Under the pieces are notes generated by a model. The model had not been told where the DNA came from. It saw only the letters and a program-made list of their open reading frames with translations, and searched no databases. A stretch of DNA of 64,000 bases, from positions 73,470,001 to 73,534,000 of the forward strand of contig NC_092355.1 in assembly GCF_963676685.1 (NCBI RefSeq). The letters run 5' to 3'. Of this stretch, positions 18,038 through 54,272 are shown one piece after another (position 1 is the stretch's first letter; every line of letters begins with the position of its first letter). Made by a program: the position numbers and the translations under genes. Source of the stretch: Mytilus edulis (Eukaryota).

Positions 18038-18038
18038 A

Positions 18039-18491: not shown

Positions 18492-18494
18492 ATT

Positions 18495-20248: not shown

Positions 20249-20329
20249 AGTAAGATTAACAGATATTTTTTATTTACTTATTCTTCATGAACCTTATGAC
20301 GTAAGTCTTAATAAAAAACCCCCGCTATT

Positions 20330-21022
20330 ATGACAGTAGTTCATTTGTCACAAACAAACGCGATGGAGAATGATCGAACGATGTTACCCTTTTCTTCGCC
20401 GACAACAATTTGTGTAGTAGGACCAACTCAGGCAGGCAAATCGATGTTTACTAAAAGACTCATAGAAAATGCCAATGTCATGTTCGTTGAACCACCAGAA
20501 AAAATATTGTATGCTTATTCCGAATATCAACCACTGTTTGACGACATGCAAGAACAATCCAACTTGATATTTCACGAAGGTCTCCCGGATAAACAAAAAA
20601 TTGAAGAATTTACGGAAAATGGAAAACATTCATTGATTATTTTGGACGATCTAATATCTAAAATAGTACAATCGGAAGAGCTTTTGCATTTATTTTCTGT
20701 TACAAGTCACCATAGAAAGGCATCCGTAGTTCTCATTTCGCAATCTTTGTACCCTCCAGGAAAATACGCTAAAAGCATTTCTTTGAATTGTGCCAATTTC
20801 GTTTTGTTTCGTAACCCTAGAGATATGCGTCAGCTGATAACCTTTGCATCGCAGATTCTCCCAGGCATGACGCAATATTTCATGGACAGCTATTTAAAAG
20901 CGACAAAAGAGAGGTATTCGTATATGCTCGCTGACCTTTCACCCCACAGAGAAGATCGACAATACATGCTCAGAACAGGGATTTTTCCCGGTGACACGTG
21001 TGTAGTCTACAGACCTATATAA
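20330..21022 (+). CDS. A32/FtsK-like genome packaging ATPase
   Basis: Walker A GPTQAGKS; Walker B LIILDD; SHH..ASVVLISQ; ISLNCANFVLFRNPRD. Confidence 0.92.
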   Translation: MTVVHLSQTNAMENDRTMLPFSSPTTICVVGPTQAGKSMFTKRLIENANVMFVEPPEKILYAYSEYQPLFDDMQEQSNLIFHEGLPDKQKIEEFTENGKHSLIILDDLISKIVQSEELLHLFSVTSHHRKASVVLISQSLYPPGKYAKSISLNCANFVLFRNPRDMRQLITFASQILPGMTQYFMDSYLKATKERYSYMLADLSPHREDRQYMLRTGIFPGDTCVVYRPI

Positions 21023-29112: not shown

Positions 29113-31767
29113 TCACATATAAGTCTCTTCTGTTAAGGGGGTCTTTATACGGTGACTTCTGGTTCGTCTGGCTATGGGGGGTGTTGGATCTTCCATTGGA
29201 GGTGCAGATGGTTCTGGCGATGATTCCCTATTGAAACTTTCAGTGTCTGATGAGGAGGAGTACGTACGGAGGGTAAAAATAGGTGTGATGTCTTCAATTG
29301 ATCTCAATCTAGGTACTGTTGGTCTTTGGGGGGTGGATATTTCTGGAACGGGAATGATGGTGGGTAATTCGAATGATGGAGTTATATCTAAAGTGGGTAT
29401 CTGAGTGGTTAGTGTCGAATCCTGTTGTGATCTGTTAATTGGTAAATAAGGCAGTTTCTGGTGTCTCATTCGGTAAAGCATCTTGCCTACGACCAGGGAA
29501 ACGTATGCAACAAATAGTCCCGACACTGTCCAAAATACTGCAAAATAAAAAACACATTTATATTCATTGTATAACCTTACCACAATAAATTGATATTTTT
29601 ACTTGCCATGACAGAATGTAATGTTATTTTTTTTTTTTTCCATTGTTTTTTTTTTTCATGTAGAATTAAACATATACTGTTTAGTTGATCAAATACCAAT
29701 TCTCCTCATTTTGTGCAAAAGTACAACTATAATGCCAAACCATCATTCACATTTATGTATTAAACCCTTAATTAACATTTGAAAAAATATTATTTTCTAT
29801 TAGGGTTAAACAAAACTACAGAACTTACATATCCAGTGTTATACATCTATAGCTAAAGAACTGCCATAACCTGTGATAATTTACCAGATCATTTGTATTG
29901 CCATGATCTTGACTTGATACAGACATTTTAATTGAAATGGTTATTCAAACAATAAAAGATTGTTATGTACCTGTCATAAATACATCCATTTTCTGTAAAT
30001 AATGTCCCAGGTCTTTCTTCTGTTCTAAAAAAAAAAGAAAGTAAAACACATTTAAATAACTTAAAAAAGTCATATCTCAAATTATTTTCATTAGTCATGA
30101 ACAACACTAAAAGTCTTACTAAATGTATGTGCATCCTATAACCTACATTGTTAACAATATAAAACAGAAACTTGTACTGTTAAAATGCTTTATTTTTGAA
30201 AGATCTTATAATTTTATATTTTAGATAAACAATCATTTTCTATTTTTACATATCACCTTTTTTGTATCATTACCTGAATGTGGTTCTTTGTTGTCTGTGG
30301 TCACCCTAACTGTTGTGGTAGGCCATGCTTCTTTGAGATCACTGGTTGTTGAATCCCTAGTGGTGGGCCATGCTTCTGTGTGGTCTGTTGTTGTTGTTAC
30401 ATTTCTAGGCTTGGGGGGTGTTTTTTCCTTCCTTGTCACTTCTAATATGTTGTCAGGTACTGAAAAAAACAAACATTTTTAACACAAATATATCTTTATA
30501 AAAATATACAAAAGGTTGTCTTACCAATTGTCTGTTAGAAAAAAAATTATTTTTTTTACAATAGAATTAAGTCAAAAATAAGTTCTGTCCAGTAAAACAC
30601 CTTTAAAATCATTGTATGGGGGGCCATTTTTGGATTTTAATTCATTTAAAGTATTATAAAAGATTTGACACTTTGGGAATATATATATAAATTTTATAAA
30701 CTTTTTAATATATAATTTATGTATATAATATATAAGGTGGTTAATTTTCTCATTTGATTTGTTTTACATTGTCATTTCAGGGTCTTTTATAGCTGACTAT
30801 GTTGTATGAGCTTTGCTCATGGTTGAAGGTTGTATGGTGACCTGTAATTGTTAGTTTCTGTGTCATTTTGGTCATTTATGGAAAGTTGTCTCCTTGACAA
30901 TCATACCACATCTTCTGTGTTACATTACAAAAGTTATTATCCCTTGAGTAAGGAGACAGTCTTGCAGGTAATTCATTATTTGATCAAGTGACTTACTACT
31001 GGCCAGTGCAATAAATTTGTTATTACATAGTACTGTCAAAGCAGATATTTTCATGTGAACTTTATATTTTGTTATTTTCTTTGGTGGCACATATTGGACA
31101 TAATCGTATAATGCATTGTCTGTCTTTAAACTTGTGGTTCAAAAATAAATAATATATTCTCCCATGAGACTTTTGAAAATAAACACAGTTTTCATTATTT
31201 TGTTAACCACAACATAATGTCCATTTTCCCACCAAAAGTACAGCTGCTAAATTTATGAAATACATGTTATAATCAATCAAGGGGTTTTTGAGGTGTAAAT
31301 AAGCTACAATAGGTTTGATTAAGATCTGTATTTAACTTATGCTGTGCTTAAACCATCAGGAATGGTCTTAGGTGGATTTTCTTTAAAACTTTGAAATTGA
31401 ACATTTACATATCTTTTGGTAGGTTGATGTGTAATATTTTCTTGGACAAAGTTTAATCACAGACAGTATTATTTTTTTTTACTTCATATAAGAAACTGTG
31501 TTAATGTAAAAACCTACCACATGTCTCATTTGTGCATGTCCAGCTACACTCTCTGTCAAACATGTTTGTTACAGTAGGGGGCTCATTGAAGTCTACCAGA
31601 TGTATAATACAGTCACAACTTTCTGACATCACTTCTACAATCCTCACTTCCCTGACATAAACTTCCTTATTGCAAAAGCAAACGGCCGAAGCTGTGTCAT
31701 ACTGACATTGACCATTTATAGTTGTAATAAAGATGAATAGAACTGATACAATTTGAAACCACGCCAT
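29113..31767 (-). CDS. Four-exon type I membrane glycoprotein, 304 aa (exons 31767-31518, 30459-30274, 30024-29971, 29537-29113)
   Basis: All three introns are GT-AG and phase 1, joining into one open frame: signal peptide MAWFQIVSVLFIFITTING, Cys-rich ectodomain, Thr/Pro-rich stalk with an EAWPTT repeat, TM VFMTVFWTVSGLFVAYVSLVVG then KMLYRMRHQK, and a Pro/Ser-rich tail with PSAPP. Confidence 0.75.
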
Positions 31768-33097
31768 TTTTGTTTTGAAGAGAACGGAAAAGAGGTCGGG
31801 GGTGAATGTAGACTGGGATCCCGCTATATATAATCACCTTGTTCTATAAATAGACAGGTGGAGACCAGCGCCATTTTAGTACTTTTTAGTACTATTTAAT
31901 GCGCAACCAGTCGCGCAGGAGATTCCGGATGTTTCATGGGAATTTCCTAACTAGAATACAGCTGTCAGAATGGAAGAACGTCTGCTACAATGAAGATCGA
32001 CAATGTAACCCATAAGCTCATTTAAATGGTATCGTCAACAAATAATTGAATATATATAACATGTAAAAATATTTATTATAGATATCAGTACTATAAAAAA
32101 AAAGTTCTACCCCAAAAAATGAGGATTTAGATATATTTTATTTTTATTTTTGGGCAGTTGCTATTTTTACAAAAGTGCCAAGATATATATAACAAAAAAT
32201 AAACAGTCACAAAAAACATTTTCAAATCAATTTATAAAAGATGACATACATGTAGACTCCTTTGTAGAAAGCAGTATATTAATATCATATACATGTATAA
32301 ATTATACATATATGTAAGTTGTTTTCATCTCTAACAAACTAAACAAGTGATTATTGGACATTTTTTTCTCATCTTAAACATATAAAATACTGTCTTCTTT
32401 AAGATTTCATCATTTTCCCAGCTAGCTACTTTTTCAATTTCATAACTTTTTCTTCATTAAGGTAAACAAAATTTTGACCTGTGTTTCCCAGTATTTTGAT
32501 TAAAGAAATGATGAAACTTTCTCCATACAAATAAAGCAAAAATTTATTTGTACACCTGTTATTTGTACAATAAAAGGCTAATTACAGGATAAAATGTCAT
32601 ATTTTGATTGGCTAATACGTTCATTTACTCTAATGCAGCAGATTTTTAATTATTCTTAACCATCAATCATGAATGAATATTTAATAGACTGCAGTCTTAA
32701 TCAATTTTTAAACAATGGAAAATAAATACTTGTTATTAATATAATTACATTAGATATATGTTTCATTATAATACATTATTCTGATTGACAAACTACACAT
32801 CACATGTTATTCTTTAAGCAATTGCATTACACAGTTAAACTTCTTTTTGTAACTTCATATGGTTGTAAAAGTGTTGACAGTGCACACTTTTTAGAATGAA
32901 GCACTTTCGCACTTCATACAAAATGAACTTTGTTCAATGCTTTTACACCCAATGAATTTTCACAAAGAATCATTCAATTCTTGAATAGTTGTATAAGGAA
33001 CTTATTTCATTTTAAATGCTTAATTGTAATAAAATCAATGATATTTTTTTTTACAGATGGAAAGCTGACATCAAGCAGCAAATTGAACAACTATACG

Positions 33098-33240
33098 GAC
33101 AAGATGGAACACTATTAAGTTAATAAGTACTAGAAAGACAAGATGGAACATTATTAAGTTAATAAATACTAGAGAGACAAGATGGGACATTATTAAGTTA
33201 ATACAGACAAGATGGATAACTATTAATTTAATAAGTACTA
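33098..33240 (+). repeat. Minisatellite, about 4 copies of a unit up to ~39 bp
   Basis: gacaagatggaacactattaagttaataagtactaga with variants. Confidence 0.85.
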
Positions 33241-33695
33241 CATATATTAAAATAAGTAAAAATAGTAGTGGTAACAAATTTAGTCATTGAAGGTGATTTC
33301 TGGATATTATAGTCTTCAAAAAAAGAAGATATGGTATGATTGAAAATGAAAAAAATATCACCCAAAGACATTGGAACCATCGTAATCATCAGCAAATTAT
33401 ACTGGAAAATAAATACACACTTCGTGTACCATTATATACCTAAAGCTCTTAAGCTTTGCTGGTTCCAATTTAGAATTATTCAGAGAATTTTAGGACATAA
33501 TTCACTACTTAACCATGTTTACAAGATGAAAAAAAAATGGTTATGAGTATCATATGGTTTTTGGCACAGTGGAAGAAAAACAATTTACCAAACAAAGTCA
33601 CATAAAGTATTACCAAAAAAAAGGGAACACAAACTTACAGAAATACATTTCATTTAAAAACCTCTCTGTAATGAAATATGATAAATCTCAAAGAC

Positions 33696-35035
33696 TTAGT
33701 GGTGTCTTCTTAATCTATCATGTCTATCTTGGACTGGTTTATTTGTTTTCTTTGTCTGAACCCTCAACTCTCATTAGAAATAGGATAACTAAAACTCTAT
33801 TCATCTAGTAGGTCATTAAAGCAAAGAAAAAGGATTACGTTCATAGTATAAGGGAGATAATTCCTATTGATGTAATAAAAAAAATGTACTGAATTTTATT
33901 GGGACAATATCAGCCAATCAAATTGTGAAAAATTACTCCAGCGATCAGCCAATTTTTTTTTTTTTTTTTTTATTTATAGATGAGAAAAGACTTATGCACA
34001 AACATGAACAACAAGACAAGAATGAATTATATATGCAGAATTTGAAATTAAACAAAAAGCAAGGTAAGTTCTAGGTAAGTTCAATTTGTGACACAGTTTG
34101 AACATCAACAATAAAAAAGGGACATAATTATGTATCATATTAATCCAGTTTTTTTTTTATTGATATTAAATAAAAAAATCGTGGTTTTTTAAAAATCATA
34201 TTCCTGAATTTAAAGGTGGAGATTATTTACCATTATCGTTAAGTATGCTAACAACAATGCTATTAAGAGATGTGGTATGATTTCCAGTGTTACAACTACC
34301 TATCAAAGTTCAAATTTAGCTGATTTAAGCAATTGCATGCAACCGTACAGCATTCAACTATGAGAAAAATCCATACCTTATTGTCAGCCCTAAAAGACTC
34401 CAACCTGATAAATATAATACATTTCAATTAAAAAAACTAAAGGAACTGTTTCTTTCAGAAAATTGATCTTTGTTCAATGGAATAATAAAGACAGTTTGTG
34501 TATATGGTCATTGGTTAAAAATAAAAGCTTTATTGGCAAGGGTTACAAATTTTGAAAAAAGGGAATTTTAAGCTATTAAAGGTATAGGATAAATGCAGAA
34601 TATACTTTTATTGTAAAAATTTATTTGTATGAGCTTGAGGTGCATATTTTAAATTAAATAATACAGAGGAAATAAGCAACATATAAACACCATTTAAAAA
34701 AAATAGTGGGGTCTTCTTAATCTATCATGTCTTTCTCACACTAAATTATTTTTATTCCTTGTCTGCACCCTCAACTGTCATTAGAAATAGGTTACCAAAA
34801 ACTTTTTTAAAGCCAACATTTATATGTGTACCTGTTAATACCAAAAATTGGTTGATTGCAGGATAAAATCTTGTATAAAATATTTTTATTTATAGATGTG
34901 AAGAGACTTATGCACCAACCTGAACAAGACAAAAATGAATTATACTAGTATATATGTGCAGAATTTGAAATTAAACAAAAAGCACGGTAAGTTCAATTTG
35001 TGACACAGTTTGAACATCAATAATAAAAAAGGGAC
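33696..35035 (+). repeat. Diverged direct duplication (33696-34125 vs 34705-35035), each copy holding an exon-like unit
   Basis: Shared gtcttcttaatctatcatgtct...tcattagaaatagg and ttatag|atg.gaa.agacttatgcac...aaaaagca.g|gtaagt...gggaca. Confidence 0.75.
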
Positions 35036-35690
35036 AGAATGGCGGGTCCCTCCTTAGTTACCCCTGGTCAACTGTGGATTTGACGGCAACTTTTAGCCAA
35101 TGAAAAAAATTGTTACATCCAAATTGCATTAGAATATTGGTTCTTTGTCAAATCTAATAAGTAAAGACATTAAAATTGAAAATGGAAATGGAGAACATAT
35201 TAAAGAGACAACAATCCTACCAATGAGCAAACAACTGCTTACAGCCACTAATGGGTCTTCAATATAGTGAGAATCTCCTGCACCTGGAGGCGCTCATACT
35301 AGTTCAGGGATAATTAATGTCATACTAAACTCCGAAATATATACACAAGAAACTAAAATTTAAAATCTAATAAGACTAACAAAGTCCAAAGGATACTTGG
35401 ATACACGTACTTGGGACATATGCAACAATGAGACAACAATACAATATGCACAATAAAACTCATCATAACAAAAAAAGTACATGTATGTGGTCATTGCTTA
35501 AGATTAAAAGCTCCATTGGCTGTGTATGGATACTTATACATTCCAATTACACACCTATGACTACTTTGTAAAATGCATAACTGTTTTAATTTCATGCAAT
35601 ACAGGCTTTTTAGAGTTTAAAAGAAAACTGTGTTAAATGATGCATACTTTTAATCTTTCCTTTATATAGTTGATTTCTAATACCAAGAGG

Positions 35691-38600
35691 ATGAATGTAG
35701 GTCTAGGTACACCTATCAAGCAGAGAGAATGTGATAGAGATTTTTGTTTAGTGTGTGGGAAATTTGCAAAGGAAGCCCGTAGAGTAGAAACCATCCGGAA
35801 GTTAAAAGGGAAAGATTACAGTTTAAAGGAGTTATTGAAGAAATATGGTGGAATTAATGTTGAAAGTGGAACAGTATGTAGAAACTGCAGTAAAAAAGTT
35901 GACTCTCTTCACAAAAAGAAAACTGATTTTTACAATGAATGCCAAAAAAATGCTGGGATGTCAAAACGAATGGCTTCCTCACCACATATAAATCCACCAA
36001 AGAGAATAAATATGTCAACACCGAAAACATCTACTCAATATGCAGCAGTTTTCAGTGACAGTGAAGAAGAAGAAGATGACATTTCCATCATTGGTTTACA
36101 TTTATCAGATGAAGGTAATTAAGTTAAGATATATGTTAACTTAAACCTGGCAACAATGAGTTGGGTGGTGCCCAATGAAACCCTTGCAAAAATGCAGATA
36201 ATACAGATTCTTTACTATAAAGTTTCTGGGGGACCAGGAACCATTGTAAATACATATAAATGTAATTTTGTATACTTATTAATCAATAACTTTAAAAATT
36301 TAATAATTAAGACATATAAGCTAACAAACATTATAAAAGAATTAAAATACAATTTATGGTAGCCACACTATTGTGCTGGTTTTAACTTTTGTCCTTGTAC
36401 TTTGAGCATATCCAAGGGATCATAATTTCAGAAAAACCACGGTGGCTGAAATTATTTTCACCCTTTGATGTGTGGTTTCATGTGAATAAATGTAAGTTAA
36501 GTTTTTTTTTCACACTTTTAAATTTTATTTTTAATTGGAGTTATTTCCCATTGCTCAGAATGGTACTAGAATTAATTTTTTTTGTTGATAGGTGGCCTAG
36601 ATTGATGCTTATGTTATGATCTATTTTAATTTATGAGTTATCTAAGTTTGAACAGGAATGGTGTAATTAATAAGTATATGGTTAAATACATGTAGTATAT
36701 CAATGAATGTATCTCTTCAAATGGTTTTAGTCAGAAGTTGTAAAAATATCATTATGACTATTTTTAAGTTATTTGTCTTTTTAATGTAGAAGTCCCAGTT
36801 GATCCTGTTTGAGTTTCAAGATTTCCAAATATCATTTTCATGCAGGAATTATGGTTTGCTGTCACTCTGACAGACTCTTGTTCTGAATCTTATATGGGAA
36901 CAATGCAATTAAAGAGGCATATCATCAGAAAAACTCATGCGTACAAAAATTAACCAAAGCAGACAACATTCAAACTTTCTAAAAAAAAGAAATTGAAAAC
37001 AAACCTTTAATAATTTCAATGTATCTGAAGCTCTTTTCTGGATTTACCTTCATCAGAAACTCTCATAGTCAAAGCCAAAGAAGGGAAGAAAGATACCAAA
37101 GATACCAAAAAGGACAGTCACACTCATTTATTGATAGATAAACTGACAACACCATGTCCAAAAAAGAAATAGACATAATTTTTTATATAGAATAGACCAC
37201 TGGTGTACCGTTTCAATGGTTTTACACTTGTAATTTTGGGGACCATCATAGCTTGTTGTTCGGTGTGAGCCAAGGCTCCATGTTCAAGGCCGTACCTTGA
37301 CCTATTATTGTTTACTTTATAAATTGTTATTTGGATGGAGAATTGTCACATTGGCCCTAATATCGCATCTTCCTATACTTAAATAACAGTTTACAGAACA
37401 CAAAATAAAAAAACTAAAGACTAAGCAACACAAACTCAACCAAAAACAGTTGGTGGTATGAGGTGCTCCAGAAGGGTAAGCAGATACTGCTCCACATGTG
37501 GCAGCAGTTGTCTTGTTCAAGTTATTACAAATCGTGCAAATAGTCTAACTGGGTAAAGTCACATGCAGGAAAAGAGAAGGGGTGGTAGTAACTACATAAG
37601 GAGCATATATATCTGATTCCATCTGTCAAACTGCTCATCGATAACGATCAACCACCTCGTGACGGCCTCCCTCTAAATGAATTAACAAATTTCTTGGAAC
37701 ATAAGGTCGATATCAGATGTTGTTTAAGGGGGAGCACACTTGAATTAACTTATCTAAGAATATCAGTTAAAATCTGTTTGACAGTCAAAATGTAGGAGAC
37801 AGTAAAAATGTGTTACACAGTAAAAATCTTATTTTCAAATTTGGTTCGATGAATCAATCTTTTTTATTCTGAAAATAGATTTTATTATTTGGAACAAATT
37901 TGTATACTTTTCTTTATTTTTTCATAACATTTTTATTATAGATACAGAAACAAACCAAGCACATGTATCAGGTATCCTATCTTTACAGTCTGCATCATCT
38001 TTATCAGGATCATCTTCACATCCATTTTCATTAGATTCATTGACTTCTTCTGCTACATCTGAATCGGCAACATCCTTTCAAACAGCTTCTATGACATCTT
38101 TGGCTTCATCTAATTCTGTAACATCAAACCAAACAGGTTCATGCTCAACATCTACTGATCACATATATTCCAAGAATAATGAGAAATCTTCAACCGTAAA
38201 ATCTAAGGGTAAAGAAGATAAGCAAAGATCAACAATTCCTGCTGCCATAGATCACGATTATATTGTATCTAAGCCTTCCCCTGTTGTACAAAATATAATG
38301 GTAGATAAAATCATGGATTTTAAAAACAATATAAATATAAATTCAAAAACAGAAATGAAAGAAGCAGACACAGAAATTCTTATGTCTATCTTGAAAACAA
38401 AAAACAAAAGAGAAGTTATCAAACATCTCCTCACAACTGAGGGTTTTAAAGACAGCATCCTGTGCCTTTTGATGGAGGAAACAAATTTGATGTCCAATCG
38501 TCTAAGAAATAGGAAACTATTTTATGTTAGTGAGTTGATGAAAAAGAGACCAGAGGATTTGAAATTTTTTAAATGGAATGAAATTATTTGTGAGTTCATG

Positions 38601-41600
38601 GTAAAATTTCCAACAGTTTTCAGTTTGATATTGACAATGTTCTTAACGCCACAAGACATGGAGAACAAAGATAAAATAGAAGCTATTATACCAAGAATAG
38701 GAATGGTTTACAGCATGCTAATGCAGGGAAGAAACAAAGAGCTCAGCAGAATACAGCGAATAACATCACTGTTTTTGTTTGACAACATATGTGATCAAAA
38801 GGTAAATAAATGTTTTATACTATTCATGTACAGAGAATTCATCCTTGATTCCTTTATAATGCAATGGTGATCAATCTGGTATTGTTTTTTCTAGGTGTTA
38901 TACTGGAAATAGAAAAACAAGCAAGAAGGTGGAATATATATCTATGTGTTCAAATAAATTAAAAATTCATGATGATAGCTAATAAGAAAACTCTCCCTAA
39001 GAGACTAAAAGCCACAGAAATTAACAACTTTAGGTCAGGATACAGCCTTTAACAATGAGCAATTAATAACAATGTATAATGTCGACTCCAATTTTTTATA
39101 AATACTAAAAAAAGAAAAGAAAATTATTAATGAAATGAAAAATCTAGCAATACAATACATCAAATACTTAAAGGGTACTTTGAACAACTGTGTGCAGTGC
39201 AGTATGGTACCATGTGAGGTATAACTGGAGCCAGTAGACTTGTGGTATAATAATACTGTTCAGAAAAAAACTAAACTTTTTTTCCTGAAAAGAAGATGGT
39301 TTTATTTAGGATAAATGTTACACTTCTGGTTTTAATGTGTTTTCTTTTCAAGTTTAGACAATTCAGAATACCTGTGAATACAATTAAACTTCAATACACT
39401 GAATACTAATTTGTTTACTCACTTAATTTGATTTTAAAAGAATTATTACTTTTAAAATATACTTCATATTAAGGAAGATTCATTTAACTTGCAGGTGTTT
39501 GATAGACTTCAGACGGTTGGCGTATGCCTAAGTTATGAAAGAAGCCTACAAATTGTAGAGATGATTGGAGGCCATTTCAATGATAAGGTAGTGCAGCTGG
39601 TAAAGGACAACACTCGTTTCCGAATCATTGGTGACAACATCAATTGGACTGTTGGTGTTCATGACCAACGAATTAACAACAAACAGAAAATGATGCATGC
39701 TTTTGGTTCAGCAGTGATAGTACAAAACCTGACCTTCACCAATCTAGACAGAGTTGTACCACAACAGCTTTATAGTCAAACACCAGTTCAAAACTTCATA
39801 CCATCAGAGGAAGATTACAACCTTATAACAACTGACTACATCATTCTAATGTCAAGGGTTGTTTTTGAACACATTCCATACTTCAAAAAATTTTCAGATA
39901 TTGTTCCAATTAACATCAGCACACCATGTAGTCCTAATTTGAAAAAAAAGTCAGAAGTCATACCATTACCTGTTCTGTTAAAAAATGAGCAATACTATCA
40001 AGATGTCGTAGGGATACTTGATTTCTATGAGAAATGTTTAAAAGATGCGCATGATAAAGCAGGAAAACAACTCCATGATCAGACATATCAGATAGGAGGA
40101 GACCAGCTGACACGAGAGAGATTCTCAGGAGCAAAGTCACTCAGGGCACACCATCTTAATCCTAGTGACAAATTCACCCACTTGAGTCCAATAACTTTTG
40201 AACTTTTCCACATGTTGATGTCCTACCTCAAAATGTCATTGAACCTCACATACAAACAAGAAAGTGGTCAGGATATTGGAACCTTAAAATCACTCCAAGA
40301 TAGACTTTCCAGAAAAAATATTGGTGACAATGTGAATGATCACTATGAAGCAAATAAAGACTTTTTTATTTCTGTTACAGACATGTACATTGTGGAGTGT
40401 TTCTTGGAGTTTTTTGGTATGGAAGATAAATATTCAATGCCAACTAAACATGTGCCACCAACCTTTAACACAAATGATGAAATGAAGGAATGGTATTTCA
40501 GTACTGTGGAGATGATAGTCAAACAACATGTTTTCCTCCAAACTATAACCACAGGTGCAAAACAACAAATGCTGGAAGGTATATATATTTATATATATAT
40601 ATGTGTGTGTGAGCATGAAACATTAAATGAACTGAGTTCACTAACCATCATTATAAAATACCAGGATAAAAGCAACTATTTGTCCAAATACATTTGCTGT
40701 GTACATTACAATTCACCTTGGTCAAATTAAACATATACTGAATCCTTGATCAGACACACTGACATAAAAAGCAGGTTTAGACAGGCAGCAAGGGTTATAT
40801 AAATTGGGCGTAAGATTTTAATTTCTACTATAGATGTTTCAATTAACACTGATCAAACTATAAACTAACTTTCAGCATGAATAAGTAAGAAAACAGATTT
40901 GTTTTTTTGATTAATTAATTATGACAGAATTCTAAACTTCAAAATCTGTTCTGATTGTGATTATATACTGCTACATTTAAATTTGAGGATGAATATACCT
41001 GTATAAATCAAATTGATGGAAATAACTCCCCATACAGAAATTAATGCTAACAAAAGCACATAAGTTTCACATGTGAAGCACATGAGATGCAAGTAAGAAT
41101 TGTATGCAAATCAGGTTGCTCATATGTGCAGTTTGGTAGTTCATATATATCTAATTTAGAAAACTAATTCTTTACAGTTGATGGTCAAGTTTTCCGATTA
41201 GTTTTGGCGAATGGGAAAACCATCACACTCATGAAGAAAACAATATCAAAGTCAAAGAAAGGTGATCAGATTAGTAATTATGGAAATCAAATACTCCAAC
41301 TAGGATTGTTATTTAAAGACTTGATAGATATGATACATATGCCAGAAAGAGTAAGAGGGATACGTTTGTTGAAACTTGCAATGATGTATTTTAAAGTCTA
41401 TAATAATCTATCTAAGTATGCCTTAGAAATACTCAGACTCCTGGTACATCAGTTATGTACTTTGTCTGAGAAAGGCTCCAATGAGGAGTTCTACGCCATG
41501 TTTGTGAATACAGGAGGAAAATTTGAAACACATATTCCTGCTGATCGAAGAATGGAGTACCTTGTCAAAGAAGTGAAACAACATGTTAAGCATATGTACT

Positions 41601-41914
41601 CCAACAAAACAGAAGAGAATATTTCAAACCGTACCAGGGCAATATCTGGAATTCGTGAAATTTCAGTAAATTTTGACCAACAGTCAGGGGTAATTATACG
41701 CTCAAAAAAACATTCCGACAAATCATCTAAGGAAGATGAACTGGCTATTTTATCAGATTTACGAGATATTAGACCATTTCATTGTCAACCTGGTAGGAAA
41801 CATTCATGTTTTGGAGAAATGTCATCATCTGTTGTTCAAAACCTTGATGTGGACCATTATCACAATTGGATCAATACCAGAAAAGTTAAATTTGCTTTGG
41901 AAAATGGGAACTAA
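35691..41914 (+). CDS. Academ-type DDE transposase, 4 exons (35691-36114, 37942-38801, 39495-40578, 41178-41914), about 1034 aa, intact
   Basis: GT-AG introns of phase 1, 0 and 1 keep the frame; N-terminal CLVC...CRNC zinc site; Ser/Thr linker; IIGDNIN (D), GGDQLTRER (D), FELFH, PADRRMEYL (E). Confidence 0.85.
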
Positions 41915-42599
41915 ACATTGACATAATCAAATGACTATTAATAGTCTGTAATTTGCCAGGTGCAATTTGTTTTTTTGTAACTTGTTTTCTTTGGATTGAT
42001 CTGAAGATTGAAGATATTTCATCAGATTTTTGTAGATTGTTGTTATGATGTATTTGATAATTACATGATTTTCCCTGGTTGGGTGAAGGGTTTGACACCT
42101 TCAAACTAGTTAAACCCAACCATAGTCTGTTGTTGTTGGTTGATCTAATATTTGTATTTTTTTAAATTTTTTTATATGAAATAGAGCACTTAGTTTTCTA
42201 AAAAAAAAATCTCACTTTTTTCAAGTGGGACCTTTTATAGCTGACTATAGGTTTATCTCATTGTTAAAGGCTATACTTATTTGATTGCCTATGATTGATT
42301 ACATTTAATTCTTTTGAACTTTGGTCATGAGAGTTGTCTCATTGGCAATCTTACCACATCTCCATATTTTTATGACAGTTCTTCTTAATTAAAACTACTA
42401 TATAGCTTTTATCCAATCAATCATTTTTTCTTCAAATATATTCCACCTTTGGTTTGTATTGATATTTGATATGTAAAGGTCATAAAGTTTTTTTTTAAAC
42501 CTGGTTAATGGTAAACATAAAATCAAAAGAACTAACATACAATATGCATATAGCTTTTTATATACTACAAATATTTTCAACTTTTTAACTAGTTACATG

Positions 42600-44290
42600 A
42601 AACATTTTTTACCTATTATAAAGAAAATGCACGATCACTTACACTGTTTTCTTTAGTTTAAAAATCTACAGTTACCATATACAATGTAGAGAATATTGGA
42701 CATTTTCTTTGCTGTTTCATATGATAGACCAGCAATAATTACTCTAGTTTGGAAATAAAATATTCACCTTTTTTTTAGATATTAGCAAAGGCAAAAATGA
42801 TTATTCAAAATAATTTTTTTTGTCAAAATAATTCACAAATTAAAATAGTGGAAAGATACAGATATTTACAGTATTTTACCGGTAGTTATTGTATTTATTT
42901 TTTATTGAAATTAAAAAAATGCCACAGATGATCTCTTTAATAAAGCTCTACAAGTCTTTTTCTCCATTAAAAGTATATAATTGTAATTTCTGTGAGGTAC
43001 CCTTGAAAACCTGTCTTAAGGTGGTACCCAACACTTTCACTAAAATTAATTTGGTTCGTTTAATTTTCATAAAATTTCGTCAAAGTATTTACTTTGAGAC
43101 TTTGATAAATATATAAAAAATTTAATTTTTTTGAACCAACCATTTTGTCAGAAAAAATACACTGGTTATATAGCAATTTGACAAACTCCAATTTTGATCA
43201 TTGAGAAGCTAAATATTCCTTTTACAACACAACGTAATTAAAACGTTTAGCTGATTTTACAGAGTTATCTCCCTGTAGTGTTAGGTACCACCTTAAACTT
43301 TTTGAAAGTCTGATTAAACCTTTTTTCACATATGGTAGTGAAATGTGGTTATTTGATCATTACATAAATTTGAATAATTTTGACAATCTACCAACTGATA
43401 GAATACAACAAAAGATGTGGGAATATATTCTGAGGGTCAAAACATAGTCATCAAATATGTCTAGTAGACTTGAATGTAACAGGAATCCAATGTTGTTTAT
43501 TAATTTTGTTTAATGTATAGTTATCATAAAACAATACTTAAAATAAATATAGCTAGAATATTATATAGTGCATTTAATGCAGGTCAATAATTATCTCATG
43601 AAAACTTAAAATGCTGGTTTTCTACACTGAATAAAATGTTAAAGTACTTAAACTTAATACAAAAAAATTGACAATAAAAACTCTTATAAGATAATATAAT
43701 CAGCAATCTGTCTTACAACCACAAATAATCATATCTGGAGCTGTGGACAGAAACCTGGTGTTTTTTAGTAATATTTTTGTTTCAAATTTTGTTCCCAGTA
43801 CTATCTTCAAACCAATCTTTTCAAAAATATGAAAAGTAAAATTACACACTTACATGTATGTGCTCAGTTTTTAAATTTTAAAATGGGAAGATACAATAAA
43901 CCCAAAATTCCAAGATAACTACGTTTTTCACTCAGTACAGACTGAAGAAGATTTATTAAAATCTTGTGATGAATATAAAGTGTTTAAAGGTACCAGATTA
44001 TATTATAAAATATAAGGCACATTGTTTACCAATCTTATGGCTTAAATTTAAAAGATTCATGAAATAATCATTTTCTAAACTTTTAAATCCACAAAATATT
44101 ACTGAATGTACATGTAATCATTTATTCAAATTTGTCAGAGATGCATTAGACATAGGAAACAATTCATAAAAGGAGGGTTACAATTGTATAACATGTGAAA
44201 CATTGAAATTTTGTTTTGTATGATATCATACATGTATGACATTTAATGGAGAATACTTATGTTATATTACTTATCTAATCTGAATCTGAA
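42600..44290 (+). pseudogene. Heavily degraded LINE 3' remnant between the two AcademH genes
   Basis: Residual YGSEMW, ILRVK and GRYNKPKIP motifs; (atctga)n tail at about 44272-44290; boundaries approximate. Confidence 0.5.
43020..43292. mobile_element. TTAA-specific MITE (Kolobok- or piggyBac-like)
   Basis: ttaa|ggtggtacccaacact ... agtgttaggtaccacc|ttaa. Confidence 0.8.
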
Positions 44291-44558
44291 AATTTGGAGT
44301 TATCTCCCATTGTTTTGACCAACTTTTTGTGAATGAAGTATTAGTGGTACATTTTATTTCTAACAGTCAAACATTTTAATTGAAAGGTGGCAAATTAGGT
44401 GTTCTTCAACTTAATTATTTGTTTACTTCTGAAAATCATAACAAGATAGGCCCATTTTCTTGTGTTTTTTTTTATAAAAATTTGTTTAAACACTGAATTA
44501 GCCCAGTCAATCCATTTTAACTTTCGACTATTAATATGCAGTTTTAAATTGTGTAGAT

Positions 44559-47500
44559 TTAATTTAATGTTTGTACAATGAGTAAAATGTTACTCAAATA
44601 ATGCTGCTTTAGGTGAACATAAGGAAATAAGCCCTGGATGTCCTCTTCACATTTAATGTCTTTGTAGTTCAAAACAATTTTGTCACACAAAGTTTGGGTC
44701 AATCCTGTCACAAGTTGTTGGTTTAACATGTTTATTTGATCATTTTCTGCATTGAAATATGATTCTAGCATTTCCTTTAATTGTGTACAATCAGGTTCAT
44801 CAGCACATTGACAATTATCTATGACCTCACACTTTTCCACTTCACTTACAAGACAATGATCACATTCACATTCTTTTTCACATACATCACAGCAGTTATG
44901 CTTAAGTATTGAATCTAAATCAACCTTTGTCTCAAAATACTGGCTTAGAAACTTTCTTCTGCATGTTTTTAGGAGGCAGAATTCTCTCACTTCTGGTTGT
45001 ACAATTGTGTTGGTGGCAATATCACTCATATTGTAATGCATATATGCACTGCTTTGTCGACCATCTCTACCAGCTCTACCAATTTCTTGTAGATAACCTA
45101 AACGAGTAAACAATAATTGTTTTTGTTAAATCATTTCCTTTCATTTTTCAAATTTTTGGTTCTGACATTCATGAAAAAAACGAAACAATATTACATATTT
45201 CAAATTTTAGAACTGCAATTTTTTTCTGTTAAAGTCTCATGTTTTTTTGCATGTTGGTGTATCAGCATATGAAAATGTGACCAACATACAGCATTGGCTT
45301 TTGATCTCAAGGTGAAAATATGGATTTTTGTATTGTAAATACTTGTGACCTATGACTTTTCATCTTTTTTTACAAAGTGTTATGATATTTGGAATATCAC
45401 AAAAGGATGAAGTGTATGATTTTTAGGCGTCTATGTATATATATATATATATATAGTTACAATTATTGGCCTTTCACTTGTTGTAAAATATGAAAGTCTT
45501 TGTGAAAATTAATTAATATATGCATAATCCAGAACTTTTCTATTTAGATAAATTTATTTATATTTATAAATATGCAATTGTGTAATATATATGTATTAGA
45601 CCGCAGTCAAATTTTTTAAGGTGCTTATGATCCAATTCTTGCAATTTAAATATTATAAACTGTTAACATAAATAGTTAGTTTTATGTTTCCATATGTAGA
45701 TAGGAGATAACTACCCTTATATTTTATCAGTTGAGTCTGCTTTTTATGCAGCTCTGAACACCATGGTTCTGTTGGTATTAATAGACACAGTCTAAAGGGG
45801 AATAATCCTTACATATGATACTGATTGTCTCCCATATCAATTATGTATTCAGTGTTTTATAATGTTGTATTTTATTATATTATTATTTCATTGTTATCAT
45901 ATTGTATGAAATTTTGAAACCCTAATAACCTTTAGTGTAATACGTTATATAGCCTTAATACTTGCATTCCAAAGAACTTGGTGGTCCAATGTGGCAAACC
46001 CTTTCCACATCTGGGGCATCAGTGCCCATACCATAAGCTTGAGTGGCAAAAAGCAACTTTATGGATCCATGTGTGTCTGCCATGTTCTGTGCTATATTTT
46101 TTTTCATCTAGAATTATACAATTTATTTCAAATGCAAATGATTTATAATGATTTCATATTTCTTTATACATGTAAAATACTGTTTCATTCAATTCGTTGT
46201 TTATTGTTTAATACTAATGAAATATGTTGAATAAAGTGGACATGGACATTAATGTTCTGTAACAATTAAACTGTTTTTTTTTGCATCCATGTACAAAGAT
46301 GAATAAGGGTTCTGTCCATGGCCAAATATTAAAATTAAATCAAAGTCAAAAGCACTAAATGCATGAGCGTTATGAGTATATGACCGCATTAAGATAAAAT
46401 GAAAATTCATAATATAAGTAGTAACCAATGGATGTCACTGTCATAATTTGTTGGACAATATTAGTGATGGGCACATCTAATGATTGGTTTATTTTTCAAC
46501 TCTTAAAAAAAATATTTCTGAAATATGCTTATTTCTTGTAAACCATATTATGAAATTAAAAGAAAAATCTTCTACCTTAAGAATGGAAGTATTATTTATT
46601 ACAAAAATATGTACAAAAACATCAGACCAAAATGAAAATAGAAAAAATATTTGTACTCCTGTGGAGTCAGTATACCAGATTTGAATCCATTCCTTTTTTT
46701 GAAAGTTTGCCTGGAGTTTGCTTGTCTATGTTTGATTTCTTAGTAGATTATAAAAGGAATGCTTTATTAATATTTAAAATAACCTCATCTGTGCAAGGTG
46801 CATGGAACTGTGACACTGCTGAAAGTATTTCATCGGTATTGTCTTCCAGGCGGGCTGCCTGTGACACCATGTCATAGCCTACTCCACACCATTTCAGTTT
46901 TGAATAAACAATAGTTTTGGGAACATTCCAGATCTGACTACAAAGTTCCTCAATATATGGGTTTAACACATCTTGATATGAACCTTCTGCTGTTGTTTTA
47001 CCTCCAGTGAGAGGTAAACGTTTTTGAACTATAAGTTTGATGTTTGGTCTATCAACTGGACCTGATAGGGAAAACACATCTTTCATACAAAGTTGTTGTT
47101 GTATCTCTTTCCTCATTTTCGGTGTTGCTGTTGCTGTAAGTGCTAGGATTTTTGCCTGTGGCAATATTGCACGTAATTTTGAAATGTTTCTGAAATCTGG
47201 ACGAAAATCGTGTCCCCATTGAACCACACAATGAGCCTCGTCTACTACAATGTGTGACACATTTTCCCAACTCTTCTGCTTAAAAATGGTGCAAACTTCT
47301 TTTTTTAGAATTTGTTCAGGGTGGCCAAAAATGTACTCAAATTTACCATCCTTGAAATCTGCTGCCTCTGGTCCTGAAATATAAAAATTAAACCTTTTTG
47401 GTACATAAACACCATTTATTTTTAGACTTTGATTAATAATAAGATTAATATGTATTTACAGATTTAATGTAAAAATATTATTAACAGTTTAATTCTTTAG

Positions 47501-50410
47501 AAACAGATGCATGAATGTAAGGTAATGTATTGCCCACAGGATTCATTTGACATTGGTCTCATTTCATGTTTCTATTTCTATAACTAGCTGCAATCAATAT
47601 TCTATATATGAAATGATTGTGAAGTGTACATGTATTTCCATCTTGGTTATCTGACATTAAAATTTTGGTTTATTTTATTTAGGGAATTTTATGACTGTAA
47701 CATTTTTTCGGTCTATGAAGAAATGTTATAAAAAAGGTGCTGCACACTGAATAACCTGTATATGTGTTATACTAAAGTGTGCACCACATTTTTTATTGTT
47801 ATTTGTCCATAATTTTATTCTAATTTTCATTTTAAACTGGAGTAAATCATGAAAAGGTTGATGACGTCACAGTCACATTTCAAAATTATGTCTACATGTA
47901 TGAGCTGATAGACAAAACACTGTCACTTGTTACATCCAAAATAAAATTTTGGTTTAATACTTGTAGTTAAATTTTTAATTTATGAATATCATTGCATAAA
48001 ACATTTGGTTTGAAAAGCAGGAAAGACAGTTCAGCATGTGCAATTTTGTTTTAATAAATGATTGAAGACAAGTATTTTAACATGAAATATAAAATTAAAC
48101 TTATCAATTTTTGGTTTTTAAATTCTATATTATCTGTTGGATAATTCAAAGTGCTACCAAAGTAATTCACACAAAAAGGTAATTGAAAGTATATAAAGCA
48201 ATAAGCACATCAACGGTTCCTGGTCCCCCAGATTATATCAAGAATCTGTATTATCTGCCATAATGGCAGGGGTATCATTGGGCACCACCCAACTCATTGT
48301 TGCCAGGTTAAATGTGTCATGCAACAGTACTTGAACTTATTATACATAAGATGTAGTAAGAGGTCCAATGAGGCAACTATCAATACAAGTCACTAGCCTA
48401 TTTTAAAAGTATTGCCGAAACATTTTTCTGCAAAGTGTAGCGAGGCTAAAAATAATAAACGAAGGAATCATGCTTTCTGAGTGTTTCCCAGACCCTGTCT
48501 TAATCTGAAAGCTTGAATGTGTTCTGTTTCAAAATTGTTTATATTTTGGACTCAAAGCAAAATGTATAGAATCTGTGTAAGACTTTAGTTTTTAGGGACA
48601 ACATCTAAAGAAAAATATTTAGGATAAAGCAAAAATGTAATTCACATAGTTCAGCATGTGGCCACTGGGTTTTCCTTTTTTCTTTTTGTGTGTGTGACTG
48701 TTTCAGCTTGCATAATTTTAATCTTTTATACCTGTAAATTATTAAAAAAAAATTCAAATAAGTCAAGAGGGGGCTGAATATCATTGATATAACTATGTCA
48801 AGTAAGTTTTTATAACACATTTCAATTACAATTTGATGTAGCTCCTATAAACTTGGATACAATTTTTAGTACCGTAGTTGAAAAGTTGTAATTTTATATT
48901 AGCTATATAATATAAAACTAAAAGGTATGCAAAAAAGAATCCAGGATCAGGTGTTTAGTGTTTGTAAGCTCATGATTATGTGATTGACCCTTTCAGGATA
49001 AAGGAATTCTTTTTTCAAAATTTCATGATTATGATTTGTTTTGATTTTGGACTTCAGGATTTCATGTTTTTTTAAGTCCAGGATTTGGGGATCACAACCC
49101 CTCCTCCCCCCCCTCCCTTTCCCTTCAATGCAGACATTTCAATTGTATCTAATTAATATTTATTCTTTTTTAAATAAAAGATATGGGAATTTTTTGAAGA
49201 TTTTTTTTTTAAAAAGATGAATATTATAAATAATCTGGTGCCCTCTCAAAGTATCAAACTATGAATAGCATTTATGAAATGGCTTAAAAGACCTGCTGAG
49301 TTATCTATTTTCAATAGTAAAACATTGCAAGTCAGATTAGTTTTTACAAATTACCACAGAACAAACCATTTATTTTTGTGATTATCAAGGCAGCCCCATG
49401 TTAGGGGAGGGGGATTCTGCCAACATGTTTAACTCAACACATTATATATGTATTTGCCTGTCCCAAGTCAGGAGCCTGTAATTCAGTGGTTGTCGTTTGT
49501 TTGTGTTACATATTAGATTTTCATTCATTTTTTTATACAAATAATGTAAGGCCGTTAGTTTTCTTGTTTTGAATAATTTTACATTGTCATATAGGGGCCT
49601 TTTATAGGTGACTATGCAGTATGGGCTTTGCTCATTGTTGAAGGCTGTATGGTGACCTATAGTTGTTAATGTCTGTGTCATTTTGGTCTCTTTTGGATAG
49701 TTGTCTCATTGGCAATCAATTACCACATCTTCTTTTTTAGTTATTTATTTCACCCCCCACCATGAAATGGTTGTTCCCTTACACAACATATTTTCTGTTG
49801 AAGAACAAATAAATATACATTTATAAATATAATTTGTTCTTCCTTTAACATGTTTAATATTCTGCAAAACTGGAACACAATTTAAATATAATATCATTTA
49901 TTTATATCTATTGGTATTTATAACAGTAATATCAAACATATATCTGTATGAATATTTTTGGTGTCTCTGTTTATCTGTTTCATACTTGAGTTTCCCTAAA
50001 ATTAAAAAGTGTCAATGACACTGCAGTCAAGAATGGAATGAATGAATATTACAAATACCTTCAAGACTATTTATTAGCGCTGAATTAACGTTAACAGCCT
50101 TTCTACCCAGCTTTCTTGTCTGCTCTTCAATAATGGCATTTAAGGGGCTGATTATTATGCATTTGGTGTTATTCATTTTTCCAAGCATTTCAAAAATTAA
50201 TGACTTCCCATAGCCAGTGGGTAGCATGATCAACGCATCACTTTTCATTGCACCTTGAATACTTTGCAATTGCAAAGGTTTCAAGTGGGTTAAATTAACA
50301 TTTCGCGTACAGTTGATCTTAGTTAAGGCAATTTTATGTATCAAGACATTCTTAAGTTTTTCTTTAAAATCTTTCACATCGTCTGCTGCCATATTGTTTA
50401 TTGTTGTCAT
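44559..50410 (-). CDS. RecQ-like SF2 helicase of AcademH, 4 exons (50410-50059, 47373-46784, 46107-45966, 45097-44559), about 540 aa, intact
   Basis: Motif I LPTGYGKS; Ia SPLNAI; II DEAH followed by CVVQWGHDFRP; III LTAT; V ATQAYGMGTD; VI QEIGRAGRDG; RQC zinc site CRR...CCDVC. Intron 3 requires a GC donor (t|gcaagt at 45965). Confidence 0.9.
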
Positions 50411-52237
50411 TTACAAATGCATGCCGGGAGAAAACACCGGCTTTCCTATTTTGATGACGTCAATATTTTTAAATTTAGAACAACCTCGATTTCAAATAAA
50501 AAGATGGCGTTATACCCTACCTGTCTTGATATATGAAATATGTAATATGCACATTGATCTAGACAGGCGAACCAGTCTAGGGGTGAATGGAGAACCTGTT
50601 GGGATAATATCGAATGTCGCTAATTGTTTCAGTTAATAAGAAGGAAAAAAACCCGTTGTAATTATTCTTATTTGTTGTAAATAAAATATTAATTCAATTT
50701 CGGATTATATATATTATAAAAGAAAATAAATTCAACTCCATGACACTCGAGCTACCTTCTTACGTTAGAAGATTCGATATAGAAAAACTTACTGTTCTCT
50801 AAAAACACTAAGTACCAAACGGTTACGGTTAAGGACATGATTTTCATTCGTATACATATAGGTAAATACTAGGGTTATTCATACAATTTTGACTAAAATC
50901 TGTAAATGAAAATATATCAATAACCTGATATAACATTGAATATTTTTTTTTTAAATGTCATCCATTATTGTAATACTGTTAACAATTGCAGTACTACACA
51001 TTGAGAGGAGTAAATTTTATATAATAAAAAAAAAAATGTTCCAGATATATCATTTTAAGCATTTGTTTTATCCACATAATTTCTCCTGTGTACATTTAGT
51101 TGAATCCTAAGTCCTATGTACTAGAGTATTAATACAGTGTTTTTTCCCCCATATACATTTTATAAAACCTACCATCACTTCATATTTTGGATTGCTCATT
51201 TCATACAATTCTTCATTCTTCCCCCCTATTGACAATTATGAGGTTGTTTTTCATAAGAAGTCTTGTAAAATATTCTTTATATTGTTATTTAAAATCATAG
51301 ATTCCAACACTAAACATTTTATTCATTTTAAAGTGTAGTAAATTGTTCTGACATATTAAAAAAAAAATCTAAATTTGCCTATTTTCAGTAACTAACTAGT
51401 GAACATTATATTGTATTACATAACCATTAGTTACAACAGAATCCATAGTCTAGTAGGAAAGGTCTATGATGGAAACCTACAGACTGAAAAGCATCTTAGA
51501 TATTAATCTCAGGTACATGTACATGATTTTTTTTTTATCATTTAACATAACAATTTGTAATAGTAACACTATTTTAATATATGGTCTTTGTTTTTCATAA
51601 CAGTCTATGTAAAAGATGTGTAAATTGATAAACCTCAAAAGATGTAAAAATGATAAAACAATAATTTAATGGGAAGTTTCAAACTATTATGTAGTTTACA
51701 TAATTATTTGTTATGTAAAGATTCATATCTATTGTTTAAAAGGGTCAATTAGAAGATCTGTAAATCTTAGATTTTACAGTTACTTATTAATTATGTAACA
51801 TTTTTGTATAAAATATACACTACTTTCTTTTTAACAGCACAGGTCAACAGATAGAAGATATTGTAAGTACTAAAACTATTCTTTTTACACTTAGATTTTT
51901 CAAAAATGTTACTTTTATAAATATAAAATATTTTATCTAAAAAGTCTTCAATGATTGTAGTAAAAGCATTGATTGTAACAGTGTTAGTACTGTGTACCTC
52001 CATTTTCATTTTGAACATCCTTGAGTTTTATGTCATCCTTGTACATGTTATACTTGTTTCCTTTGAATTTTGTAACATTTGCTCCTGTTTATCTTATTAT
52101 TTAAGAGATTGGTTTCTTAATTTAAATTATAGTGTGTGTGTGTGTGTGTATTTTTTTTTCCTGTTGACATTATTGTATTTTTAATTATATTAATTACTGG
52201 AGGTTTTTTTTCCAGGTATAATCAGATTAAATTTATT

Positions 52238-53491: not shown

Positions 53492-53941
53492 TCATCCTAA
53501 ATGTTTCTGATTCAAAGCTTTATTAATATACTGTGTGATGGCTGTTAAGTAGTTCCATTGTATCAATGTTAATGAAATGCCTTTAATGGTAGGTTTATGG
53601 TTTAAAAATTGTCTGATGTCTATAACTGTTCTCTTGTTGTATTCACATATAGTTAACACAAATTCACTAGGTAGACTAAAATGTTTAATAAAAGAGCACA
53701 ATGACTGGTTGAAGTTTTGGTCAATTTTAATGTAGTCAGTCATGTTTGTGTTTTGTTTTGAAGATTCATATACACCACAAGTTATCCACAAAGTTGTTGC
53801 TGATAATATTAATATCACAATTACTCCTGTCCATTTCAACATATTTATATGCATTTCATAATGATAGTACATATCTGACAAACTAGATGCAATGCTTTTT
53901 CTTGATGATGAAGATGTAGAATTAATCCTGGTATGTGACAT
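53492..53941 (-). CDS. Maverick accessory protein: single TM helix plus PC4/Sub1-like domain, 149 aa
   Basis: ATG 53941; TM WTGVIVILILSATTLWITCGV; NMT and NQS sequons; FVLTICEYNKRTVIDIRQF...KPTIKGISLTLIQWNYL PC4 signature. Confidence 0.75.
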   Translation of the reverse strand: MSHTRINSTSSSSRKSIASSLSDMYYHYEMHINMLKWTGVIVILILSATTLWITCGVYESSKQNTNMTDYIKIDQNFNQSLCSFIKHFSLPSEFVLTICEYNKRTVIDIRQFLNHKPTIKGISLTLIQWNYLTAITQYINKALNQKHLG

Positions 53942-54181: not shown

Positions 54182-54272
54182 TTATGTAATGATAGATGGT
54201 GTTGCGATAAGAATGTATATAGTGGGGGTTATAATTATTTATCATGGGGGTCACAGAGCCCCCTATAGTAGT
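54182..54272 (-). repeat. Maverick right TIR
   Basis: Ends ...gagccccctatagtagt, followed by the TSD aatgaa. Confidence 0.97.

Follow-up and report, generated by a model that had tools for sequence, protein, structure and literature searches.

Just inside the right end of a Maverick element in Mytilus edulis lies a small gene whose product, a 149-aa protein, is predicted to be a type II membrane glycoprotein with a PC4-fold domain on the lumenal or exterior side of the membrane. This is a conserved Maverick accessory gene, and we propose that its product serves as a non-structural host-interaction glycoprotein dimer and not as a replication factor that binds DNA; from the sequence evidence we judge the chances of this role being the right one as even.

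The element spans positions 14696-54272 of the window (the whole stretch of DNA that was analysed, 64 kb in length) and is bounded by TIRs. Its features are as follows.

14696..14786, left TIR, preceded by the TSD AATGAA
15118..16188, plus strand, soluble CARD-PC4-PC4 protein, 356 aa, a separate paralogue (Pfam; C-terminal Cys/His cluster)
16408..17573, plus strand, retroviral-like integrase with chromodomain (Pfam rve and Chromo), split over two frames in the window copy
17591..21022, plus strand, morphogenesis module (probable minor capsid protein, basic ORF, probable major capsid protein, protease, ATPase)
17591-18037, plus strand, probable minor capsid protein, 148 aa, labelled from gene order and size
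18495-19802, plus strand, probable major capsid protein, 435 aa, labelled from gene order and size
19799-20248, plus strand, adenoviral-type protease (Pfam Peptidase_C5, just below the cut-off)
20330-21022, plus strand, A32-like ATPase (Pfam Pox_A32)
21688..26991, minus strand, protein-primed PolB in several pieces; in the window copy two frames share its N-terminal part
31501..31767, minus strand, small Cys-rich ORF whose N-terminus is hydrophobic, probably for a secreted product; a related element retains it
31809..50579, nested transposon with DUF6589 and a DEAD/RecQ-like helicase, foreign to the Maverick, bounded by short TIRs and flanked by a 10-bp TSD
53492..53941, minus strand, gene for the membrane-anchored PC4-fold protein of 149 aa, predicted to be a type II glycoprotein (ORF, Pfam, model)
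54182..54272, right TIR, followed by the TSD AATGAA

The two TIRs, of 91 nt each, are 99% identical and the 6-bp TSD AATGAA is found on both sides. The Maverick core set of integrase, pPolB, ATPase and protease is present, the pPolB being assigned via related copies: its three C-terminal pieces show 70-80% identity to a related copy, in which DNA_pol_B_2 is matched by the last piece. The 435-aa and 148-aa ORFs occupy the expected positions and are conserved across elements, with no Pfam match to either, and are candidate major and minor capsid proteins by gene order and size. The element measures 39.6 kb because an 18.8-kb transposon, which has the ends TAG...CTA and which we take to resemble AcademH, is nested inside it; the remainder amounts to about 20.8 kb, and a relative on contig C11 with an identical gene order is 21.7 kb long. 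TIRs with a 6-bp TSD are expected of Mavericks, according to the available part of PMC8097293. The ends of the window element read 5'-ACTACT//AGTAGT-3' (14696-14701 and 54267-54272), the inverse of the usual AGTAGT//ACTACT, with perfect 6-bp TSDs, and it can be seen that its nearest relative shares these inverse ends (L031:3603 / L033:5296), the remaining seven of nine TIR-bounded elements starting AGTAG. Neither 5'-(AGT)2//(ACT)2-3' nor (AG)3//(CT)3 is found at the window ends; the same part of PMC8097293 gives these motifs as 'most common' in vertebrate elements rather than as strict.

The anchored gene starts 331 bp inside the right end of the element and reads inward. Its product is divided as follows.

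53834..53941, minus strand, N-terminal tail, aa 1-36, predicted cytosolic, with a conserved juxtamembrane helix (H31, K36)
53771..53833, minus strand, hydrophobic segment, aa 37-57, predicted signal anchor (Kyte-Doolittle, homologues)
53696..53770, minus strand, stalk, aa 58-82, bearing Cys82 and two sequons, N66 and N78 (sequon and Cys conservation)
53504..53686, minus strand, PC4-fold domain, aa 86-146; Cys99 stands where PC4 has R75, and Leu113 where it has W89

The first-pass annotation had recognised a PC4 signature in this gene, and this is borne out both by Pfam, which places PC4 at aa 90-134 (E 2.4e-9; 37 bits against a 25-bit cut-off), and by modelling. Among 114 aligned family members 50 match Pfam PC4, and none matches another family. 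An AlphaFold2 model built from the 114-sequence alignment has a pLDDT of 94-98 across the domain, and its structural comparison with human PC4 gave Z 8.9 and an rmsd of 1.3 over 61 aligned residues, PC4 and MoSub1 being the best matches. A Foldseek search with the model also returned PC4 (1PCF, rmsd 1.4), with an E value of only 4.5e-3 and no row under 1e-3. We conclude that the modelled C-terminal domain is a true PC4 fold, a beta-sheet with a C-terminal helix.

For the topology counts we used, among the best 150 profile matches, the 103 that cover the domain with at least 55 aa before it. The search profile included the anchor and so favoured anchor-bearing matches, and the homologues are related, so that the counts are not independent trials; for this reason the topology is rested on signals that the profile does not force. 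The one TM helix annotated earlier is indeed a single hydrophobic segment, with a best 19-aa Kyte-Doolittle mean of 2.19 at aa 39-57, and a hydrophobic segment (KD of at least 1.6) is present in 94 of the 103 homologues, six of the other nine being soluble multi-PC4 proteins. The count of two N-glycosylation sequons made at the same time has to be amended, as the 149-aa ORF holds three (N7, N66 and N78); two of them, N66 and N78, do lie C-terminal to the anchor. In 90 representatives there are 146 sequons between the anchor and C82 against 56.1 ± 6.2 after shuffling (maximum 76 in 1000 shuffles), 63 against 44.1 ± 5.9 inside the PC4-fold domain, and 26 against 31.1 ± 4.9 in the N-terminal tail. 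All 90 have a sequon C-terminal to the anchor. The N7 sequon in the tail is probably unused, because sequons are not enriched N-terminal of the anchor. Of 94 homologues, 80 retain N78 and 84 retain S/T80, the position between them being variable.

Two cysteines form a near-invariant pair (C99 in 94/94 homologues, C82 in 92/94), which is not seen at the matching columns of the six soluble multi-PC4 proteins. Two relatives, P0040 and P0093, have one anchor followed by two PC4-like domains with the Cys pair in each, an arrangement compatible with a disulfide inside each domain and with two domains acting as the working unit. The net charge on the N side of the anchor is higher than that on the C side in 74 of 94 homologues, lower in 8 and equal in 12. 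The ER lumen is where proteins acquire N-glycans and structural disulfides, and the PC4 domain is therefore most likely lumenal or exterior. The signals of a type II membrane glycoprotein, namely a single signal anchor, a positive-inside N side and C-side sequons, are all present at the sequence level. The predicted N-in/C-out topology, the glycosylation and the disulfide are all very probably right, and the stalk sequons, Cys pair and charge bias agree with the type II lumenal or surface reading that had been one of two put forward in the first-pass annotation.

The other of those two readings was a membrane tether that faces the cytosol or nucleoplasm and holds ssDNA replication intermediates. 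Protein-primed replication displaces single strands, which speaks for a tether, as does the true PC4 fold. A PC4 homologue of phage T5 is likewise tied to replication (PDB 4bg7 title). Against this, both the selected sequons and the Cys pair lie on the PC4 side, the charge bias runs in the opposite direction, and the key DNA contacts (the equivalents of W89, R75 and R100) have been lost, so that we regard the tether as highly improbable.

The DNA contacts were assessed by mapping residues from an alignment to 1PCF (C99 to R75, Y101 to F77, R110 to R86, L113 to W89, I119 to R100 and K120 to K101) and counting them in 90 anchored homologues. In PC4, F77 and W89 stack on bases, alanine at either position abolishing ssDNA binding, and R70, R86, R100 and K101 hold the DNA backbone (PMC4350104, in the part available). 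In the anchored clade the W89 place is aromatic in 7/90, the R75 place is Cys in 90/90, and a basic residue is found at the R100 place in 1/90 and at the R70 place in 16/90; a sequon directly follows the W89 place in 24/90. Residues that are kept include R86 and D84 (82/90 each), a basic residue for K101 (46/90) and an aromatic for F77 (45/90), and an extra aromatic stands at the S104 place in 36/90. Of the features whose conservation the first-pass annotation had singled out, the anchor and sequon N78 are kept; of the DNA-binding aromatics, by the counts above, that at W89 is mostly lost and that at F77 persists in half of the homologues. The anchored clade does not carry the ssDNA-binding residue set of PC4/Sub1 (W89, F77 and R70/R86/R100/K101), and since the W89, R75 and R100 equivalents are gone, canonical ssDNA binding has likely been lost, leaving a basic remnant. 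Some nucleic-acid or polyanion binding may remain in the domain, as the R86, D84, K101 and F77 equivalents persist and it is net basic (mean +3.7).

This remnant bears on the possibility that the protein is a lumenal or surface trap which binds DNA, RNA or glycosaminoglycan via the R86, K101 and F77 equivalents, either as a decoy for endosomal sensing or in DNA uptake. Such a trap would make use of the persisting R86 place, the aromatics at the F77 and S104 places and the basic domain; it would have to work with the W89, R75 and R100 places lost and, in some homologues, with a glycosylation site adjoining the W89 place, and D84 and R86 may persist for structure. We consider a trap distinctly unlikely.

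In the same genome 45 matches to the anchored gene were found, down to about 28% identity, and 29 of them have a Maverick-type ATPase no more than 40 kb away, where about 0.5% would be expected per match. Conversely, 29 of 87 ATPase sites have the anchored gene within 40 kb; the 87 were taken from 150 listed sites (354 candidates), those left out being mostly longer-frame and lower-scoring. The gene thus appears to be common among Mavericks but not universal, or not always detected. When 20 loci were read over 20-64 kb, 15 had core genes, three had only TIR or accessory markers and two had nothing; with Maverick core genes, TIRs or accessory markers at 18 of 20, the idea of a domesticated host gene was rejected. 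Contig C11 carries 19 of the 45 gene matches along with many Maverick fragments, including right-arm-only copies 99% identical to the window gene.

The proposal that homologues lie beside Maverick TIRs holds well: in the nine TIR-bounded elements the anchored gene is the first from the end in six (at 223-626 bp), the second in two and internal in one, and in eight of the nine it is first or second from the TIR and reads inward. In several elements the integrase/capsid module follows directly downstream of it in the same orientation. Of the nine, five carry the polymerase type of the window and the other four a second one, and tblastn gave no cross-match between the types at 1e-6; the two likely correspond to the two pPolB groups of PMC10748475, as described in the available part of that paper.

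A profile search of 1.84 billion representatives returned 573 proteins at E <= 1e-3, some of which are ordinary soluble PC4s. The closest named homologue, 86% identical, is from Mytilus coruscus. Of 30 clusters examined, three had an organism name, being M. coruscus and two Solemya gill-symbiont assemblies (2-7 kb contigs); a Sedimenticola MAG is also among the sources of homologues. We read the homologues from symbiont assemblies as host DNA, and on that reading the range of the family is probably the bivalves. In a tree of 63 rows and 71 columns, 27 of 27 anchored domains are set apart together by a single branch (95/91). L093, an independent record of 2.9 kb, holds a distant member, then a tandem-PC4 gene, a TBP-like gene and the start of an integrase. 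No relative of the anchored gene was found in IMG/VR with three queries, in a phage collection by tblastn or in a JGI scan with P0056, and two queries of the ESM Atlas gave no usable match; a GTDB scan with P0153 returned two Micavibrio stretches (E 3e-5) that match the stalk only and were taken as chance.

Nei-Gojobori dN/dS of the anchored gene was 0.22-0.54 in 10 of 10 natural pairs, which are not independent. Between the window copy and the C11 relative it was 0.23 overall, 0.19 in the tail, 0.30 in the anchor and 0.24 in the domain; control genes in this pair ranged from 0.05 (capsid) to 0.46 (protease), several of them near saturation. The tail and anchor are therefore under purifying selection and translated. 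Two unspliced contigs span M1 and the anchor, one covering 53489-54010, with a single base inserted close to its 3' end, and the other 53682-54038; their source runs are only guessed to be RNA, none of the runs listed as holding the gene being recorded as such. A true RNA run, of which 6% was read, gave a sense depth of 1-2 over the 3' half of the gene and none over the anchor, and a second true RNA run gave no reads on the gene. The RNA data are weak, and compatible with low expression starting upstream of M1.

These results also bear on a soluble product. The hydrophobic segment might be a cleaved signal, or be cut after insertion, to release a secreted glycoprotein dimer, and it is indeed only moderately hydrophobic, with a Ser/Thr-rich second half, and preceded closely by a methionine, M34, in the window copy. 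A Met no more than 10 aa upstream of the hydrophobic core is, though, present in only 28 of 101 homologues, and the upstream tail, of median length 31 aa, is under purifying selection, which makes a secreted dimer improbable. Downstream of the anchor the window protein has M67, and a Met between the anchor and C82 is present in 51/101 homologues, that one included, so anchor-less forms starting at such a Met are possible.

Taking the gene to encode the host-interaction glycoprotein proposed above, a promoter at the end of the element would drive its expression in the host cell. The Cys82-Cys99 disulfide would close the PC4-fold domain on the lumenal or exterior side, and the working unit, going by the fold and the two-domain relatives, would be a dimer, which as a scaffold would bind a partner in the host secretory pathway or at the surface. 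The soluble tandem-PC4 paralogue, where present, would retain the nuclear DNA-binding job. The end promoter and the dimer scaffold are a tentative part of this scheme, for which we put the chances slightly below even.

The gene could instead encode a virion envelope or egress glycoprotein, where capsids bud through a membrane, the cytosolic helix grips the capsid and the PC4 dimer attaches. Retention of the gene by elements of both polymerase types, an independent record beside an integrase, and conserved juxtamembrane residues would all suit this role, as would the elements in which the gene lies upstream of the integrase/capsid module in the same orientation. Nematode Mavericks, moreover, have a fusogen (10.1101/2022.07.12.499685, in the part available), and envelopment elsewhere, that is, a membrane or envelope stage of Mavericks outside nematodes, is stated as open in the available part of PMC10748475. 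No fusogen-sized or shared fusogen-like ORF was found by six-frame comparison of 11 accessory regions, from which spliced genes could escape. Genes of host-modulating type (CARD, BIR and Macro) are also found in the end regions of gene-bearing elements. We prefer the non-structural role to the envelope, which we hold to be unlikely, because of the mostly terminal position of the gene outside the capsid module, these neighbours, its presence at only a third of the ATPase sites checked and the lack of a fusogen in the regions compared; these are soft arguments. A more elaborate version, in which bivalve Mavericks have a membrane-wrapped stage and the anchored family forms a disulfide-locked, glycosylated attachment or egress dimer whose basic patch binds host-surface polyanions, seems to us a little less likely still.

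The left gene is a different protein. The first-pass annotation gave it two PC4 domains and an inward orientation, both of which stand (two PC4 stretches, E 1.6e-17), and overlooked an N-terminal CARD (E 6e-7, above the cut-off). It has no hydrophobic segment (maximum KD 0.64), and its C-terminal Cys/His cluster is conserved. Weak matches to toxin and receptor chains were treated as noise. In the tandem paralogue Trp is present at the W89 place of domain 2 in 6/6, with basic residues before the GI/GV motif. The CARD-PC4-PC4 protein may serve as a decoy that binds DNA, or may modulate death-fold signalling. Two tandem-PC4 relatives lack the CARD (L087:6303-6938 and L093:1034-1582).

PC4 genes at both ends describe the window element correctly and do not generalise. 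The anchored and tandem genes lie at opposite ends in three places in the same genome and side by side (within 640 bp) in 13; among the nine TIR-bounded elements they are at opposite ends in two, at the same end in two, with one of them internal in one, and the tandem-PC4 gene was not detected in four. A rule of symmetric PC4 at both ends was rejected on these grounds, the two elements representing the layout of one lineage. We considered whether elements without the tandem gene might encode a different soluble PC4. A small beta3-alpha2 ORF is conserved beside the second polymerase type (L041:2207-2452, L044:6655-6900, L047:8889-9149 and L082:882-1127) and has a PC4-like pattern by eye, with no match by hhalign and none in Pfam; its model (pLDDT 75, from only four sequences) has a best Z of 3.8, with Pur-alpha at 3.5. 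In P0002, a database protein, the anchored gene and this ORF appear to have been fused by the gene model.

Compared with the C-terminal domain of human PC4/SUB1 and with MoSub1 (PF02229; 1PCF, 6YCS, 4BHM), the anchored family shares the fold and the D84-x-R86 and G102 places. It lacks the W89 and R100 places, has a five-residue loop deletion, and adds a membrane anchor, a stalk predicted to be glycosylated and, at the R75 place, a Cys that is presumably paired. A PC4-like gene in a Maverick/adintovirus has been recorded as 'MOSUB' of a Branchiostoma lancelet adintovirus (A0A5H3CIS2, also a BFVD entry), labelled beside 'ITR' in Fig. S2 of PMC8502044 and not mentioned in the main text of that paper; it is known from the map label, and its size of 203 aa would better fit the tandem form. 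The phage T5 homologue (4BG7) shows a viral PC4 fold (Z 6.7) but is a soluble ssDNA-binding replication factor. PC4 is absent from the text of PMC11161782 and of 10.1101/2024.03.25.586562, the latter mentioning candidate envelope glycoproteins in one adintovirus, and a review of PC4-like domains (PMC7549692) does not contain 'membrane', 'extracellular', 'secret' or 'disulf'.

Small accessory membrane glycoproteins that act on the host are encoded near the genome end in the E3 region of adenoviruses, a virus group related to Mavericks; these are mostly type I, and with no homology to the anchored protein the likeness is one of role only. In nematodes, MFUS-1 is a Maverick-encoded membrane protein that suggests a membrane stage (10.1101/2022.07.12.499685, available part); at 866 aa it is a type I, gB-like class III fusogen, unrelated in fold, size and topology to the anchored protein, which with 149 aa, an N-proximal anchor and a PC4 fold does not have the make-up of that class. 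We found no description of a membrane PC4 in Mavericks in the literature, although the supplements of PMC8502044 and 10.1101/2024.03.25.586562, and Repbase, may annotate such genes. PC4-like genes in Mavericks, probably of the soluble kind, are already known from MOSUB. The membrane-anchored form is an apparently undescribed variant, both among PC4-like domains and among the accessory genes of Mavericks.

A large clade appears to have shifted a nucleic-acid-binding fold into the secretory pathway, and the PC4 fold would thereby have been put to a new use. As a small single-exon gene under selection in elements of two unrelated polymerases, it offers both a marker and a bench handle for the question of a membrane stage, and it points to an unstudied host-interaction layer of endogenous viruses in bivalves.

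Other accessory genes were seen in these elements. A TBP-like gene is present in tandem-PC4-bearing Mavericks (L088:603-1130, minus strand, Pfam TBP 5e-26; L093:1829-2344, plus strand, 2e-27), and the two may form a viral transcription module. Small ORFs that begin with a hydrophobic stretch and contain several Cys occur at 31501-31767 (minus strand), L033:1138-1485, L041:488-931, L044:8166-8615 and L048:948-1388, in the accessory regions; they make up at least two families, and these Mavericks seem to encode several secretory-pathway proteins. Near the end of elements of the second polymerase type lie a BIR (IAP) gene (L043:3059-3379) and a weak Macro-domain gene (L042:4173-4700).

In the window, a (GA)n microsatellite (54045-54105) lies between the right TIR and the start codon of the anchored gene. 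Downstream of the gene is a high-copy host repeat (52699-52910) that is absent from near-identical copies, and a short basic ORF (52892-53098, plus strand) faces the gene and shares 40% identity with part of the C11 relative. Fragments resembling a decayed LINE (11915-14582, plus strand) adjoin the left TIR, and a single-exon rhodopsin-family GPCR (Pfam 1.9e-17) is encoded at 2876-3916 on the plus strand.
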